Of a stretch of 64,000 bases of DNA, positions 9,161-15,320 are shown piece after piece. The notes beneath the pieces were generated by a model that did not search any database, had not been told where the DNA came from, and saw nothing but the letters and a program-made list of their open reading frames with translations. The stretch comes from an archaeon (GTDB taxonomy: Archaea > Nanobdellota > Nanobdellia > Pacearchaeales > GW2011-AR1): assembly GCA_030605415.1 (NCBI GenBank), contig JAUWIJ010000006.1:2335-66334 (forward strand), read 5' to 3'. Position numbers and translations under genes: made by a program. Positions within the stretch are counted from its first letter, which is position 1. Each line of letters starts with the position of its first letter.

Positions 9161-9604
9161 ATGCTATGTCCATATTGTACTGCGAGCGAAACGAAAGTTA
9201 CTGATAAGCGTGATAGTGGTTCGGTGGCGCGTCGGAGACGTGAATGTTTAAAATGTGGGAAACGATGGACGACGTATGAGAGGGTAGAGTTAGATCTTAA
9301 TGTTATTAAAAAAGATGGTCGGCGGGAAAAATTTTCGCGTGGAAAACTTTTTGAAGGAATTGACAAGAATCTTCAGAAAAGGCCTTTTACAAGTGAGCAA
9401 ATAGATAAAATTGTTGATGATGTGGAAGCGAATATTTACCGAGTTGCAAAAGATAAAGATATTAAAAGTTCAAAAGTCGGCGATATTGTTATGAACAAAC
9501 TCAAGCGAATTGACAAAGTTGCGTATATTCGTTTTGCGGCGGTATATCGTGATTTTGCTGACATCAAAGAATTCAGGGACGAGATTAAAAAATTAGGAAA
9601 ATAA
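9161..9604 (+). CDS. nrdR: Transcriptional repressor NrdR
   Basis: N-terminal zinc ribbon CPYC...CLKCG followed by an ATP-cone. First gene of the nrd operon. Confidence 0.9.
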   Translation: MLCPYCTASETKVTDKRDSGSVARRRRECLKCGKRWTTYERVELDLNVIKKDGRREKFSRGKLFEGIDKNLQKRPFTSEQIDKIVDDVEANIYRVAKDKDIKSSKVGDIVMNKLKRIDKVAYIRFAAVYRDFADIKEFRDEIKKLGK

Positions 9605-9605
9605 A

Positions 9606-10001
9606 ATGAGTGTAAATATAAAAGAATATCAGGAGACGTGTAAGATGACGGCGAAGAAATGTGAGAATGATAAACTTGAGATTTGCAATTGGGGACTTGG
9701 GCTTGCGGGGGAAGCGGGTGATGTAGTGTCGTGTATTAAGAAAGTGGTGTTTCATGAAAATGAAATGATTAAAGATGGTATACGAGAAAATGTGGGAGAT
9801 ATGATGTGGTATACTGCGATGATTTGTAATTTTTATGATTGGAGTCTGGATGAAATTTTAGGTGAGAATTTAGAGAAGTTGGAAAAAAGATATGCAAGTG
9901 GCGGGTTTAGCTTGAAAGAAGCACAGAGAAAAGGAACGATGAAAAAATGGAGTGGGACAGATTCTGAAGTTAAAATTGTGGGAGGTGTGGAAAATGGTTA
10001 A
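9606..10001 (+). CDS. MazG-like nucleotide pyrophosphohydrolase
   Basis: GLAGEAGD...VGDMMWY...LEKLEKRY, the all-alpha NTP-PPase pattern. Confidence 0.75.
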   Translation: MSVNIKEYQETCKMTAKKCENDKLEICNWGLGLAGEAGDVVSCIKKVVFHENEMIKDGIRENVGDMMWYTAMICNFYDWSLDEILGENLEKLEKRYASGGFSLKEAQRKGTMKKWSGTDSEVKIVGGVENG

Positions 10002-13000
10002 AAAAATTAGAAAAAGAGACGGAAGCGTTGTGTTTTTTCAGAAGGATAAAATTGAGAATGCAATTTGGAAAGCTGTTCGTGCCGTCGGAGGGAAAGATAA
10101 AGAGCGTGCGAAGGAGATTGCGGGTTTGATTATTAAAAAATTGGACGAGACATATGGGGTGCATGGAATCCCGGAGGTTGAGGTTGTTCAGGATTTAATT
10201 GAGAAGATTTTAATTGAGGAAGGACATGCTCAGGTTGCTAAGGCGTTTATTCTTTATCGTAAAAGTCGTGAAGAGCTGAGAGATGTTAAGGGTCTGTTCG
10301 ATACAATTGAGGCGGTTGAAGATTACATTGGCTTGGATGATTGGATGGTTAAAGAAAATTCTAATATGGGGTATTCATTGCAGGGATTGAATAATTATAT
10401 TGCGACGAAAATTATCGCGAACTATTGGGTGAGAAGAATTTATCCTGAGGCGATTAGACGTGCTCATGAGACAGGGGATTTACATATTCATGATTTAGGC
10501 TGTTTGGGGGCGTATTGCTTTGATGATAAAACTATGATTTTAACGAAGCATGGTTGGAAATTTTTTAAGGATGTTATCAAAGGAGAAAGAGTCGCAACGA
10601 AAAATTTAAAGACGGGTGATATGGAATTTCAAGTCCCTTATGGCAGACAGGTTTATAATTATTCTGGAGAGATGTATTCTTTTGAAGGAAGAAGCGTGTC
10701 CTTGAATGTTACCCCAGAGCATCGGCTTTTAGTCAGGAGAAAACACAAGAAAACATGGGAGTTTGTTAATCCGACCGAGTTTAAATATGGCATGGAATTT
10801 GAAAAAAGAGTTTCATGGAAAGGGAAAACAGTGAAAATGTTTCAGATTCCAAATGTTAAAGGAGGTAACCGGAAGAAAGATATCGAAAAATTTAAAGTGG
10901 AAGATTATGTAGAATTTATGGGATGGTATCTTTCCGAGGGTTCAGTTTATGAGCCGAACAAGGGAGATTATAGGATAAGCATTGCGCAGTTAAGAAAAAA
11001 TTATAGAGAAGAAATTTTGAAATTATTGGATAAGATGAAACTAAATTATAATAATCAATCTAAATTCAATATTCATCTTCATTCGAAAGATCTATTTTAT
11101 TATCTAAAAGGTTTTGGAGTATCTGGTGTAAAATATGTTCCGAAAAATATTAAGGAATTGGATTCTAAAATGATTAAGAAGTTTTTAGTTGCGTTGTTTA
11201 AGGGAGATGGTTCATTTTCTGTAAATGGAAAGTTGTATAAATATTATACAAAATCTAAGAGATTGGCAGAGGATGTTGTTGAGTGTTTGTTGAAAATTGG
11301 TATTTGTGGCACGATTACAAGGAGAAAGGGGATGAATATTTATATGGTATCCGTTGAAAATAACCACCTTACTCCTGTTTATAATAAGAAAGCTGTGAAG
11401 AAAAAATATAGTGGAAAGGTTTATGATTTTTCAGTTAAAAATGGAACACTGATTGTTATGAGAGAGGGGAAAGTTGTTGTTTCGGGAAATTGCGTTGGAT
11501 GGGATTTAAAGGATTTGTTAACGGTTGGATTTAAAGGGGTTAAGGGCAAGGTTGAATCAAAGCCACCTAAACATTTGAGAACGGTGTTGGGACAGATGGT
11601 TAATTTCTTTTATACTTTGCAGGGTGAAACTGCGGGAGCTCAGGCGTTTTCAAATTTTGATACTTTGCTTGCGCCGTTTGTGAGGTATGATAATTTGGAT
11701 TATGAACAAGTTAAACAGGCCATGCAGGAATTTGTTTTTAATTTGGCGGTGCCGACGAGGGTGGGATTTCAGTGCATGTCGGAAGATACTGAAATTTTGA
11801 CACCAAATGGTTGGGCAGGTTATAACGATTTAAAAAAGGGAGATGTAATAAAAACTTTTAATATTGAAAAAGGAATAATTGAAGATAAGCTTATTAAGAA
11901 ACTTTTTGCTAGAAAATATAATGGAATTATGTATAATTTGAAAAATAGAATTCAGGACCAGTTGATTTCTCCAGGGCATAGAGTTGTTAGAAGAAAATTT
12001 TGTGGGAATTATGTTTTGGAGAAAATTGAAGATGTTAAAAAAATAAAGTCGCCATTTATAGTTCCAATTGCCGGGATTAATTCCAAGAAAGATTCAAAAA
12101 TAAGTGACGAAGAAATAAAACTTCTTGCGTGGATAATTAGCGAAGGAACGATTGAAAATTATACGACGCATAGACATTGCAAACGAATTACGATATATCA
12201 ATCTAAATTAAAGAATTTTGAAAAATATAAAGAGATAATAAATTTGTTAAAAAAATTCAAGTTAAATTTCAACGAGAGAGATTCTTGTCCGGCTTTTGGT
12301 GATTCTGTTAAAATGATAAGAATGGATGCCAAATCTTCGAGGGTTATTTATAAAATGATGGGGTCAAACGAAAGTGTTAATTTTATACCGAAGAAGTTAA
12401 CGAATATGAGTAAGAAACAATCAAGATTATTTTTGGATACTTACATCAGGGGTGATGGTTTTGAAGGTTGTAAGATTGCTACAACAAATGAAAATATTTT
12501 GGATGGATTACAACAAATTTCTGTTAATTCAGAATATGGATTTAGTGTTTTAACCAGAAAGCCGACCATTGGAAAAAAGCTGATTTATGTTTTGAGGTTG
12601 ATTAAACATAAAGATACATATATTCAAAAAGTGGAAGAAGTGAATTATCAGGGAATCATTTGGTGTCCTAATACCGATAATGAAACGGTCGTAGCCAGAA
12701 GAAACGGGAAAGTATTTATTACAGGGAATACTCCGTTTACAAACATTACAATGGATTTAGATGTGCCTGACTATATGGTGAAGGAACATGTGATTGCGGG
12801 AGGTCAGCCACAGATGGAAACTTATGGAGATTTTCAGAAAGAAATGAATATGATTAATAAGGCGTTTGCAGAATGTATGCTTGAAGGTGATGCGACGGGA
12901 CAGGTTTTTACTTTTCCGATTCCGACTTATAATATTACAAAAGATTTCGATTTTGATAATCCTGAATATGATTTAATATGGGAAATGACGGCGAAGTATG

Positions 13001-14121
13001 GTATTCCTTATTTTTCAAATTTTGTTAATTCTGAGATGAAACCGGAAGATGTGCGAAGTATGTGTTGTCGGTTAAAAATAGATAATAGAGAATTGAGAAA
13101 AAGGGGCGGTGGTTTGTTTGGTTCAAATCCATTAACAGGAAGTATTGGAGTTGTGACAATAAATATGGGGAGATTGGGTTATGTGTCGACGGATGAGGAT
13201 GATTTTATGGCGAGGTTGGATGGGTTGATGGAGTTGGCGAAAGAGAGTTTGGAGATTAAGAGAAAAACGATTGAGAACTTTACAGAGATGGGACTTTATC
13301 CTTATACGAAATTTTATCTCAGGCAGGTTTATCAAAGATTTGGTGAATATTGGAAAAATCATTTTGCGACGATTGGTCTTTTGGGGATGAATGAAGCGGT
13401 GACGAATTTTTTGCCCGGGGAAAATATTACGACAAAGAAAGGTAAAGATTTTACGTTGAAGATTTTGAATTTTATGAGGGATAGGCTGACAGAGTATCAA
13501 GAAGAGACTGAAAATATTTATAATTTAGAGGCAACGCCGGGCGAGGGAACAACTTATAGATTTGCTCGGATGGATAAAAAAAGGTTTGGTAGAATTTTGG
13601 TTGCAAATGAAGATGCGTATCAGAAAGGTGCGAAACCATATTATACAAATAGCACTCAACTTCCTGTAAATTTTACTGATGATGTTTTTGAGGCATTGGA
13701 TTTGCAGGATGAGTTACAATGTAAATACAGCGGAGGTACGGTTTTTCATACTTTTATTGGTGAGAAGATGACTAAAGATTCAGTTAAGAAGATGGTTAAG
13801 AAAATTTCTAATAATTATCATTTGCCGTATTTTACAATTTCGCCGACGTTTTCGATTTGTCCGATTCATGGATATCTGAGTGGGGAACATGAATATTGTC
13901 CGAAGTGTGATGCTGAAATAGCTGAGGTAGAAGTTGCTCCGGTTTCTGTTGCTGATGATATTGTTGAAGCAGAAAAGAGAGATGAAAAAATTAGCGAGGT
14001 TGAAAGTTTTGGAGTGATAAAAAATCAAAAGCCAGAAGTACTAGAAGTTGAAAAAGTGGCGATGAAAGGAAATAATGTGTCGGATTTAAAACTAAATTTA
14101 AGAGGTGATACTAATGAATAG
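9994..14121 (+). CDS. nrdD: Anaerobic (class III) ribonucleoside-triphosphate reductase body, with two inteins; glycyl-radical motif not in this frame
   Basis: Start trimmed to MVKKIRKRDG (ATP-cone). NrdD blocks are HIHDLG..AYC|VGWDL, VPTRVGFQ|TPFTNIT and a C-terminal CPIH...CPKC zinc site. The frame ends in ~65 non-conserved codons. Confidence 0.9.
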   Translation: MVKKIRKRDGSVVFFQKDKIENAIWKAVRAVGGKDKERAKEIAGLIIKKLDETYGVHGIPEVEVVQDLIEKILIEEGHAQVAKAFILYRKSREELRDVKGLFDTIEAVEDYIGLDDWMVKENSNMGYSLQGLNNYIATKIIANYWVRRIYPEAIRRAHETGDLHIHDLGCLGAYCFDDKTMILTKHGWKFFKDVIKGERVATKNLKTGDMEFQVPYGRQVYNYSGEMYSFEGRSVSLNVTPEHRLLVRRKHKKTWEFVNPTEFKYGMEFEKRVSWKGKTVKMFQIPNVKGGNRKKDIEKFKVEDYVEFMGWYLSEGSVYEPNKGDYRISIAQLRKNYREEILKLLDKMKLNYNNQSKFNIHLHSKDLFYYLKGFGVSGVKYVPKNIKELDSKMIKKFLVALFKGDGSFSVNGKLYKYYTKSKRLAEDVVECLLKIGICGTITRRKGMNIYMVSVENNHLTPVYNKKAVKKKYSGKVYDFSVKNGTLIVMREGKVVVSGNCVGWDLKDLLTVGFKGVKGKVESKPPKHLRTVLGQMVNFFYTLQGETAGAQAFSNFDTLLAPFVRYDNLDYEQVKQAMQEFVFNLAVPTRVGFQCMSEDTEILTPNGWAGYNDLKKGDVIKTFNIEKGIIEDKLIKKLFARKYNGIMYNLKNRIQDQLISPGHRVVRRKFCGNYVLEKIEDVKKIKSPFIVPIAGINSKKDSKISDEEIKLLAWIISEGTIENYTTHRHCKRITIYQSKLKNFEKYKEIINLLKKFKLNFNERDSCPAFGDSVKMIRMDAKSSRVIYKMMGSNESVNFIPKKLTNMSKKQSRLFLDTYIRGDGFEGCKIATTNENILDGLQQISVNSEYGFSVLTRKPTIGKKLIYVLRLIKHKDTYIQKVEEVNYQGIIWCPNTDNETVVARRNGKVFITGNTPFTNITMDLDVPDYMVKEHVIAGGQPQMETYGDFQKEMNMINKAFAECMLEGDATGQVFTFPIPTYNITKDFDFDNPEYDLIWEMTAKYGIPYFSNFVNSEMKPEDVRSMCCRLKIDNRELRKRGGGLFGSNPLTGSIGVVTINMGRLGYVSTDEDDFMARLDGLMELAKESLEIKRKTIENFTEMGLYPYTKFYLRQVYQRFGEYWKNHFATIGLLGMNEAVTNFLPGENITTKKGKDFTLKILNFMRDRLTEYQEETENIYNLEATPGEGTTYRFARMDKKRFGRILVANEDAYQKGAKPYYTNSTQLPVNFTDDVFEALDLQDELQCKYSGGTVFHTFIGEKMTKDSVKKMVKKISNNYHLPYFTISPTFSICPIHGYLSGEHEYCPKCDAEIAEVEVAPVSVADDIVEAEKRDEKISEVESFGVIKNQKPEVLEVEKVAMKGNNVSDLKLNLRGDTNE
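10516..11490 (+). mobile_element. Intein 1 in NrdD (325 aa, LAGLIDADG homing endonuclease type)
   Basis: Starts CFDDKTMIL, has block B TPEH and LAGLIDADG-like motifs (FMGWYLSEGS, LFKGDGSF), ends VVSGN, and is followed by a +1 Cys. Removal restores GAY|CVGWDL. Confidence 0.85.
11773..12729 (+). mobile_element. Intein 2 in NrdD (319 aa, LAGLIDADG homing endonuclease type)
   Basis: Starts CMSEDTEIL, has block B SPGH and motifs LLAWIISEGT and YIRGDGF, ends FITGN, and is followed by a +1 Thr. Removal restores VGFQ|TPFTNIT. Confidence 0.85.
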
Positions 14122-14136
14122 GACGAAATGTGAGGT
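13929..14136 (+). other. 208-nt insertion in the nrdD 3' region bounded by tgaggt direct repeats
   Basis: tgaggt occurs at 13923-13928 and at 14131-14136. Deleting the 208 nt between them joins CPKCDAEIAEV to WSRVCGYLRP in one frame. Confidence 0.6.
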
Positions 14137-14272
14137 GTGGAGTAGGGTTTGTGGTTATCTTCGACCGACTGCCCGATGGAATGAAGGCAAATTAGCAGAG
14201 TTCAAAGATAGGAAGATGTTTAGCGCGACGAGAACTGAGAACTCGGCGGACAGGATACCCTCACAGATATAA
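14114..14272 (+). CDS. NrdD glycyl-radical domain as a separate 52-aa ORF (or a frameshifted nrdD 3' end)
   Basis: MNRTKCEVWSRVCGYLRPTARWNEGKLAEFKDRKMF carries the RVxGY glycyl-radical motif. Its ATG overlaps the nrdD stop (ATGAATAG). The last ~16 codons read into repeat R3. Confidence 0.55.
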   Translation: MNRTKCEVWSRVCGYLRPTARWNEGKLAEFKDRKMFSATRTENSADRIPSQI

Positions 14273-14580
14273 GGGAGAGATGGGTTGGGGCACACTGAGT
14301 CCAGAACTGAGAACTCCAACGAGAACTTAGATCTCAGAACTGAGAACTCCAACGAGAACTCAGATACCCTCACAAATATAAGAGAAAAACAGGTTGGGGC
14401 ACGCCGACTCAGATCTCAGAACTCAGAGGGGAAAGGGGGCAACCGACAACCGACGGGGCAGAAACTCAGAGGGGGAACGGGGAAGCGGGGGTGGCTCTAA
14501 GAGCGAATGAAATGAACGGTCTGAGTTCTCAGAGCAAAGCGGTCTAAGTTCTCAGAGTGAAACGACCTGAGTTCTGAAGG
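14226..14580 (+). repeat. G-rich composite repeat (copy R3) with two M modules
   Basis: gagaactgagaactc words, two accctcaca...ttggggcac modules (14257-14293 and 14366-14402), a G-run core, and then complementary words (gagttctcag) ending in gtgaaacgacct. Confidence 0.85.
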
Positions 14581-14615
14581 AGAAATGAGAAACAAAAAAT
14601 GAGAATAATGTTAAA

Positions 14616-15320
14616 ATGAAAATTGCAGGTCTACAAAAAGTAACAACGATTGATTATCCGGGCGAGATTGCGTGTACGATTTTTTTACATGGATGTAGTT
14701 TTCGTTGTGGGTTTTGTCATAATCCCGATTTGGTTATTGGGGATTTTAAAGGGGGTTATCATGAAGAGGAGGTTTTAGAATTTTTGAAAAAAAGAAGTGG
14801 GAAATTAGATGCGGTTTGTATTACAGGTGGCGAGCCGTTAATGAGTTTGGATTTTGATTTTGTGAAGAAGATTAAAAAGTTAGGATATAAAGTAAAGATT
14901 GATACAAACGGTTCGTTTCCAAGCCGACTAAAAGAGATGATTGATTTGGGACTGGTCGATTATATTGCGATGGATGTGAAGAGTTGTAGAAAGGATTATG
15001 AAAAAGTTGCTGGTGTTAAGGTTGACTTAAAAAAAATTGAAAAGTCAATTAAGATGATTTATAATTTTGAAGAGTACGAGTTTAGGACGACGATTGTAGA
15101 AAGATATCATAATGTGGATTCCATAAAAGCTTTGGGAAAATGGTTAAATGAGATTTGTGGTGCGAAACCGAAGAGATATTTTTTGCAGGGGTTTAAGCGA
15201 AACGAAGGGGGGATGATTGATTCTTCTTTTTTGAAAGAGAAAGATGTTAGCGAGGAATTTTTGAATGAATTAAAAAGTAGTGTCAAAGAATTTTTTGAGG
15301 AAGTTGGGATTAGGGATTAG
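14616..15320 (+). CDS. nrdG: Anaerobic RNR activating protein (radical SAM)
   Basis: CSFRCGFCHNPD cluster motif, GGEPL, and position downstream of nrdD. Confidence 0.9.
   Translation: MKIAGLQKVTTIDYPGEIACTIFLHGCSFRCGFCHNPDLVIGDFKGGYHEEEVLEFLKKRSGKLDAVCITGGEPLMSLDFDFVKKIKKLGYKVKIDTNGSFPSRLKEMIDLGLVDYIAMDVKSCRKDYEKVAGVKVDLKKIEKSIKMIYNFEEYEFRTTIVERYHNVDSIKALGKWLNEICGAKPKRYFLQGFKRNEGGMIDSSFLKEKDVSEEFLNELKSSVKEFFEEVGIRD

Follow-up and report, generated by a model that had tools for sequence, protein, structure and literature searches.

A split nrdD gene in a Pacearchaeales genome probably encodes a two-polypeptide class III ribonucleotide reductase with its radical loop in trans

How can a class III ribonucleotide reductase (RNR) operate when its NrdD chain ends before the radical glycine? 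This question is raised by the nrdD locus of an archaeon of the order Pacearchaeales (GTDB lineage Archaea; Nanobdellota; Nanobdellia; Pacearchaeales; GW2011-AR1), which lies in a stretch of 64,000 nucleotides (positions 2,335 to 66,334 of contig JAUWIJ010000006.1, assembly GCA_030605415.1), referred to here as the window. The large open reading frame (ORF) of nrdD (9994..14121, + strand) opens with the ATG at 9994 and ends with the TAG at 14119-14121; the ATP-cone, the barrel, the SMCCRL finger loop and the Zn ribbon of NrdD are present in its product, and the radical glycine is absent. The radical motif is encoded instead by a second ORF of 52 amino acids (14114..14272, + strand) in the +1 frame. 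An earlier note on this DNA had offered three explanations: a recently inactivated gene, an RNR of two polypeptides whose radical domain is detachable, in concept like GrcA, or removal or bypass of an insert during translation or at the level of the RNA. The comparative evidence supported the second of these, and nrdD is very probably a naturally split gene that gives rise to a working two-polypeptide class III RNR with the radical loop acting in trans. At the level of sequence, the analyses showed two co-oriented, overlapping cistrons with start signals of their own, both under purifying selection, together with a predicted activase gene and no other recognizable RNR gene in the genome, which consists of 888 kb in 22 contigs, is 89% complete, and contains a single nrdD and a single small ORF.

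The point at which the chain is interrupted could be defined precisely. Across the Zn ribbon (CPIH...CPKC; 13858..13908, + strand) the nrdD frame reads ...CPIHGYLSGEHEYCPKC, and the ribbon is retained on the large subunit, with C647, H650, C660 and C663 invariant in alignment A2; M381-L385 of the finger-loop motif SMCCRL (13057..13074, + strand), which is of the double-Cys type, would receive the radical and suggests thioredoxin rather than formate as the reductant, are likewise invariant in this alignment. In ordinary NrdDs 8-13 residues lie between the Zn ribbon and the radical motif, whereas the window frame continues for 70 codons and then stops. These codons (13909..14118, + strand) encode an acidic, poorly conserved C-terminal tail that corresponds to the former linker. 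The earlier note had already described the run of non-conserved codons up to the TAG, which it put at about 65, and the 52-amino acid ORF with its ATG at 14114 overlapping the stop of the large ORF; both were confirmed, the overlap being of 8 nt (ATGAATAG overlap). The product of the small ORF starts with MNRTKCEVWSRVCGYLRPTARWNEGKLAEFKDRKMF... and has a net charge of +5, versus -9 for the acidic tail. The Pfam NRDD profile was matched from position 1 to 530 by the large ORF (E 1.3e-171), with 156-530 placed on its end, and from 530 to 562 by residues 6-39 of the small ORF (E 1.5e-10, 40.9 bits, cut-off 26.2). The junction falls at position 530 with nothing missing or doubled, and the break between both ORFs is thus clean.

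The small peptide carries only the glycyl-radical hairpin and the following helix. Its predicted radical glycine, Gly14 (RVCG14Y; GGT codon at 14153..14155, + strand), lies in a region that aligned with the surroundings of Gly711, the glycyl-radical site of P. copri NrdD. In a Pfam scan at E <= 0.01 the small ORF matched PF13597 alone, with no match to the Gly_radical family of the pyruvate formate-lyase (PFL) type, and in NCBIfam it matched only the NrdD models; a dedicated family for the small peptide was found in neither collection. A feature that the earlier note had not mentioned is a strong Shine-Dalgarno (SD) sequence for the small cistron, AGAGGTGA (14101..14108, + strand), located 5 nt before the ATG among the final codons of the large ORF, in whose frame it translates as 'RGD'. 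Only 4 of the 42 window ORFs of at least 150 amino acids have a strong SD before their first ATG, and both nrdD cistrons have one. This distribution fits the use of SD sequences mainly at operon-internal genes in this archaeon.

The same arrangement was found in many relatives. A whole-genome search of relatives revealed the two-ORF pattern in nearly every nrdD-bearing member of the window's genus, and 149 NrdD-bearing genomes sampled from the order comprised about 80 split and about 50 contiguous genes, along with 7 in which the parts are in frame but separated by a stop. In public databases, 43 clusters of called stand-alone proteins of 39-72 amino acids were found. For detailed comparison, 54 split loci were extracted, which represent the genus of the window and about 30 further genera of the order. 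Each of the 54 has an ATG 1-51 codons ahead of the R-T-K/R-C-E motif, and 48 have an SD 5-mer at -16 to -4, compared with 5.8% of all ATGs in the same loci. Relative to the large ORF, the small one is in the +1 frame in 31 loci, in the +2 frame in 15 and in frame 0 in 8, with gaps between both ORFs ranging from -137 (overlap) to +97 nt. Even near-identical species differ in this respect: in L017 a TAA is directly followed by the ATG, in frame, and in L020 there is a 5-nt gap and a +2 frame. The small ORF is 38-93 amino acids long (median 42), and nrdG follows it in at least 48 of the 54 loci. Large-subunit tails range from 10 to 385 amino acids (median 42), with 18% Glu and a mean charge of -7, and evolve fast, yet as coding sequence (pN/pS 0.11-0.67, the ratio of non-synonymous to synonymous differences per site). 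An 'RGD/GGD' conserved near the end of many tails is the SD of the small cistron read in another frame. In four loci (L034, L045, L052 and L059) the linker is on the N-terminus of the small peptide rather than on the large subunit. The longest tail, of 385 residues (L026, genome G029), has a net charge of -89 and repetitive acidic segments, and is followed by a small ORF with the usual SD and ATG.

Both parts of the gene are constrained. For the conserved 34-codon core of the small ORF (RTKCEVWSRVCGYLRPTARWNEGKLAEFKDRKMF; 14120..14221, + strand in the window), the ratio of non-synonymous to synonymous substitution rates (dN/dS) was 0.17 among all split loci and 0.09 within the genus, synonymous sites in this core being saturated (pS about 0.79), and for the last 100 codons of the large subunit it was 0.135 and 0.088, respectively. 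These values indicated that purifying selection on the small core equals that on the large subunit. Residues that are invariant or nearly so in the small ORF comprise Cys, Glu, Arg, Gly-Tyr/Phe, Arg-Pro, Asn-x-Gly-Lys, Glu and Arg, the radical Gly being invariant in 54 of the 54 loci. The invariant Cys before EVW might complete the Zn site in trans, the wide sample of small ORFs being biased in this respect by its search pattern.

Dependence on the split enzyme was assessed by searching for class I/II RNRs in 23 genomes of the genus, the window's own included. Fourteen of the 16 genomes with a split NrdD, among them that of the window, had no such enzyme; the exceptions were G017, with a PF02867 match interrupted by two in-frame stops (TAA), and G020, with a weak match only. 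In the 7 genomes in which nrdD was not detected, a class I/II RNR was present in 5. Thus, barring salvage, the split NrdD is the sole deoxynucleotide route in these genomes. Within genus g1, NrdD and class I/II RNRs are almost mutually exclusive among species, a pattern that implies repeated RNR replacement.

The history of the split was followed in two trees of the large subunit, one built with IQ-TREE from 64 rows and another from 96 rows. Three changes of state are needed in the 64-row tree: one for a large split clade in the window's family, one for an independent split in another family (f4, genus g21; L046 and L034), and one for a contiguous gene located deep among split ones (L069, genome G231). 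In the latter, which is sister to the split locus L058 (G358), nrdD is contiguous (CPKCD-V-RTRCEVYSRVVGY) with the fused junction CPKCDVRTRCEVYSRVVGY, and looks like a re-fusion in which the entire linker was deleted. The well-supported branches of the 96-row tree require no fewer than five changes of state, and a single origin of the split is excluded by both trees. A scan with the small-ORF alignment, taking one genome per GTDB species, gave 80 loci for which organism names were available. Among these, the relatives of the window are metagenome-assembled genomes (MAGs) of DPANN archaea labelled Nanoarchaeota, Pacearchaeota, Woesearchaeota or archaeon, and split loci were also present in Micrarchaeota, Nanobdellota, Dojkabacteria, Saccharibacteria, other Patescibacteria and MAGs labelled Gammaproteobacteria. 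Outside the large split clade, independent splits were found in f4/g21, Micrarchaeota, Nanobdellota and bacteria of the candidate phyla radiation (CPR). That NrdD has been broken repeatedly at precisely this linker is the strongest comparative argument for a radical loop that works in trans. Two loci depart from the usual gene order: in a Halanaerobiales MAG (L151) the order is large nrdD gene, nrdG and small ORF, and in a Caldisericum MAG (G419) the small gene is about 9 kb from the large one. In the trees, the NrdDs of DPANN and CPR are interleaved, which suggests exchange between both groups.

In the window, both cistrons belong to a compact + strand operon (9161-15320) made up of nrdR, a MazG-like gene, the large and small nrdD genes and nrdG. 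Its first gene, nrdR (9161..9604, + strand; PF22811, PF03477), codes for a Zn-ribbon and ATP-cone repressor, and is followed by a gene for a MazG-like NTP pyrophosphohydrolase (9606..10001, + strand; PF03819) that overlaps the nrdD start by 8 nt. An operon of an archaeon is headed here (9161-10001) by a bacterial-style NrdR repressor and a MazG-like gene. The large-subunit precursor has 1375 amino acids, or about 731 without its two inteins. Intein 1 (10516..11490, + strand), of the LAGLIDADG type (PF14528), is inserted at LGAY|CVGW, and intein 2 (11773..12729, + strand), with weak matches to PF14890 and PF13403, at VGFQ|TPFT; both correspond to gaps in the alignment with an intein-free relative (L079). 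The operon ends with nrdG (14616..15320, + strand), encoding a radical-SAM activase (TIGR02495 NrdG2, 194 bits versus a cut-off of 131). The earlier note had described nrdR, nrdG and both inteins as intact, and this agreed with the profile matches, with the intein junctions (LGAY|C...GN|C for intein 1 and VGFQ|C...GN|T for intein 2) and with the 94% identity of the nrdD exteins to L079, in which comparison no further disabling mutation was seen.

Between the small ORF and nrdG there is a repeat-rich, G+C- and purine-rich spacer (14226..14615, + strand), which replaced the last codons of the small ORF and put nrdG 343 nt away; in the nearest relative this spacer measures 45 nt and the small ORF has a different end. 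The 343-nt array contains short repeats gagaactgagaactc, the inverse gagttctcag, and two accctcaca...ttggggca units. The small ORF terminates with KMFVSDGRE in the nearest relative versus KMFSATRTENSADRIPSQI in the window, each followed by the stop, and its conserved core is apparently unharmed.

These features were compared with known enzymes. The window shares with canonical single-chain class III RNRs (T. maritima 4COI/4U3E, P. copri 8P23 and phage T4 1H7A) full coverage of NRDD 1-562, the ATP-cone, the double-Cys finger loop, the Zn ribbon, the RVxGY motif and an adjacent NrdG2. It differs from them (PF13597/TIGR02487) in that the radical glycine is on a separately translated peptide of about 40-52 residues, the chain being broken after the Zn ribbon and before the Gly hairpin, with the former linker kept as an acidic tail. 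The closest solved structure by sequence was that of T. maritima NrdD (4COI, 4U3E) when a contiguous relative of the same order was used as the query, and no match was found when the 154 residues at the end of the large ORF, covering the C-terminal core and the acidic tail, were compared with PDB sequences. An AlphaFold2 model was made of an in-frame relative (L093) read through its TGA, using an alignment of 29 contiguous homologs. The mean predicted confidence (pLDDT) was 85, with values of 60 for the linker around the stop and 84-89 for the peptide part, which was modelled as a hairpin (strands 684-689 and 692-695, with the Gly at the turn) and a helix (701-709). The best PDB match of this model was 8P23_B (TM-score 0.71), the P. 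copri chain whose radical domain is fully ordered. The model suggests only that the peptide holds all the hairpin-forming parts and that the Zn ribbon is on the large subunit, and it has no bearing on the association of both products. In P. copri NrdD, cryo-electron microscopy and hydrogen-deuterium exchange have revealed that the radical domain is mobile, leaves the barrel and can be wholly disordered (PMC11226230). A break of the tether is structurally plausible, since the radical domain is already mobile in a contiguous NrdD.

Split RNRs and free glycyl-radical proteins have been described elsewhere. The class Ia NrdA of Aeromonas phage Aeh1 is split by a homing endonuclease gene, and T4 Y06I is a spare part resembling GrcA. 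GrcA itself (YfiD of E. coli) is an autonomous glycyl-radical cofactor that serves as a spare part for PFL (PMC13450708). Like GrcA, which is activated by a cognate activase and works in trans with the barrel, the window peptide is small, stands alone and bears the radical loop; unlike GrcA (about 127 amino acids), it has only 40-52 amino acids, its partner would be an RNR, and it falls outside the PFL-type Gly_radical family. Moreover, GrcA rescues an oxygen-cleaved enzyme, whereas the window peptide would be obligate rather than spare, given that the large subunit lacks a radical glycine. A June 2026 review reported spare-part proteins for formate lyases only and described their existence for other glycyl radical enzymes as undetermined (PMC13450708). 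The class II enzyme NrdJa/NrdJb of P. aeruginosa is a split RNR (Crona et al. 2015, as cited in PMC9669993). In NrdJa/NrdJb and Aeh1 NrdA, as in the window, adjacent ORFs together cover one RNR catalytic subunit; the products of those two enzymes reassemble non-covalently, as the window products would. The likeness is an analogy only: those enzymes belong to other classes, are broken at other sites, and do not have the radical-bearing element separated as a mini-peptide, and, unlike in Aeh1 NrdA, a mobile element is absent from the window junction. In the full-text literature searched, which did not extend to subscription-only papers, no published description of a split NrdD was found.

Could both ORFs nevertheless yield a single NrdD chain? 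Programmed recoding, by a +1 or -1 frameshift, stop read-through or a ribosomal hop, might be suspected from the 8-nt overlap in the +1 frame, from the in-frame arrangement with one intervening stop in 8 relatives, and from the recurrence of the hexamer TGAGGT at 13923 and 14131. The earlier note had regarded this hexamer as bounding a 208-nt insertion. The two positions, 208 nt apart, were correct, but the pair is not significant, since TGAGGT occurs in the window at chance frequency (33 copies versus 27 expected), and its roles as a target-site duplication or as a take-off and landing pair were both rejected on this ground. A discrete insertion was also discarded, the extra sequence being the translated, fast-evolving linker whose length differs so widely among relatives. 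As the frames and gaps vary, no single frameshift, hop or read-through can serve all loci, whereas independent initiation serves each of them; furthermore, the nearly universal ATG and SD signals would be unneeded under recoding, and in some genomes the small gene comes after nrdG or is kilobases away. No conserved slippery site was present among the loci, nothing relevant to an intron, ribozyme or bypass structure was found in Rfam (the window at gathering level and 13800-14700 at E <= 1), and the RNA fold of 13915-14140 was ordinary compared with shuffled sequences (z = -0.98). Recoding is on these grounds very improbable, and the proposed removal or bypass of an insert is refuted. Formation of a single chain after translation, with separate polypeptides joined covalently by trans-splicing or by an unknown ligase, would have splicing chemistry at hand in a host gene that already harbors two inteins. 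However, intein/Hint matches were confined to these two internal elements, with none in the tail or in the N-terminus of the small peptide, the tails have no conserved motif other than the embedded SD, and the first residues of the small peptide vary, all of which makes such joining highly improbable. Decay of the gene, a strain-specific lesion or an assembly error would be in keeping with a reduced MAG that has many repeat insertions, one of them abutting the small ORF. Nevertheless, this layout recurs under purifying selection in more than 54 independently assembled species, no other disabling mutation is present, the enzyme is the only RNR of the window genome and of most of the genus, and the existence of a re-fused descendant means that the small ORF had stayed functional. 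The comparison refutes a recent inactivation, and we consider decay, a lesion or an assembly error exceedingly improbable.

A different matter is whether the split, if functional, is also adaptive. The small peptide would then be an exchangeable 'radical cartridge', a free RNR mini-protein of about 40 residues that is activated by NrdG off the enzyme, docks reversibly and is discarded and replaced after oxygen cleavage; by analogy with GrcA, such replacement might spare the resynthesis of a 1375-residue intein-bearing precursor. Besides the GrcA precedent (PMC13450708), this idea could draw on the need of the radical domain to exit the barrel for activation (PMC11226230) and on free radical modules in other genomes. 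Extra unlinked copies of the small gene were found in G019, a Buchananbacteria MAG and a Victivallaceae MAG. That of G019, a genome of the window's genus, is a second small radical-peptide ORF, MRTKCQIWSRVVGYLRPINTWNKGKKSEFKNRKMF (L035; G019:C2, about 10200-10300), located after a membrane-protein gene and beside a tRNA-like sequence, the nrdD-adjacent copy being present too. The Victivallaceae MAG (G418; L102) encodes a complete NrdD, a split NrdD with its adjacent small ORF and two orphan small ORFs. In addition, Desulfobacterales and Thermodesulfobacteriota MAGs (L088, L091, L110 and L146) encode stand-alone proteins of 110-113 amino acids that combine a Zn ribbon (CxxC...CxxC) with an NrdD-type radical core, are unlinked to nrdD and coexist with a complete contiguous NrdD. 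Like the window peptide, they have a CEVYSRVVGYLRP...WN.GK core and match the NRDD C-terminus only; unlike it, they have their own Zn ribbon and a complete NrdD in the same genome. These proteins may be true spare parts for class III RNR, and the literature searched contained no published description of them. Neither they nor the small ORFs have a Pfam or NCBIfam family of their own, matching the C-terminal end of the NrdD models with 33-46 bits versus NCBIfam cut-offs above 300, and in public records the free small proteins are labelled 'anaerobic ribonucleoside-triphosphate reductase' or 'hypothetical protein'. On the other hand, the window gene is single-copy and its product obligate, hence a regular part and not a spare, and repeated origins in drift-prone tiny genomes together with a re-fusion fit neutrality equally well. 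The exchangeable peptide is therefore an unlikely explanation for the window, although in some lineages a spare-part role may apply, in view of the orphan copies and the Desulfobacterales proteins. The re-fusion and the recurrent origin of the split in DPANN and CPR genomes, which are prone to drift, fit a near-neutral break tolerated inside an expanded disordered linker; a benefit is possible, either because the activase would reach a free peptide more easily or because an oxygen-cleaved radical piece would be cheap to replace.

Under the preferred reading of nrdD as a functional split gene, the enzyme would be assembled as follows. The two inteins, judging from their intact junctions, would splice out to leave a large subunit of about 731 residues and 83 kDa with a disordered acidic tail, and the small peptide, of about 6 kDa, would be made by coupled translation through the ATGAATAG overlap. 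This peptide, perhaps captured with the help of the oppositely charged tail, would dock non-covalently in the barrel, at the place where the covalent radical domain sits in ordinary NrdD. NrdG would abstract a hydrogen from Gly14, on either the free or the docked peptide, to generate the glycyl radical, which would pass to the cysteine of the SMCCRL finger loop and start nucleotide reduction. Several considerations weigh against this proposal. To our knowledge, a stable radical on an untethered peptide of about 40 residues has no biochemical precedent in RNRs. The chain modelled with AlphaFold2 was an artificial read-through aligned with homologs that have covalent radical domains, and would reproduce the canonical fold regardless. 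The genomes are MAGs, 69-100% complete. Finally, these organisms are episymbionts that could in principle use salvaged deoxynucleosides, which weakens the argument based on a sole RNR.

A two-subunit form of class III RNR is, on comparative grounds, probable and comparatively well supported. In all characterised class III RNRs and other glycyl radical enzymes that we know of, the catalytic chain itself bears the radical glycine, GrcA being the sole exception in trans. With a split NrdD, the question of whether spare parts exist beyond the formate lyases can be tested directly: if the small peptide did act as an exchangeable part, the orphan copies and the 110-amino acid Zn-ribbon versions that occur beside complete NrdDs would be true spare parts, and the GrcA principle would be extended from PFL to ribonucleotide reduction. 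The peptide of about 40 residues would represent a minimal substrate for an activase, and the pair a natural system for studying how the radical loop reaches the barrel and stays there. There are also consequences for annotation. The small ORF scores 37 bits with NrdD models that have a cut-off of 326, and because it falls so far below such thresholds, pipelines label the large gene as truncated or overlook the small one, so that deoxynucleotide (dNTP) synthesis may be wrongly counted as broken when the metabolism of DPANN and CPR organisms is reconstructed. More generally, the repeated origins of the split and its one apparent re-fusion illustrate gene fission and fusion at disordered linkers in reduced genomes.

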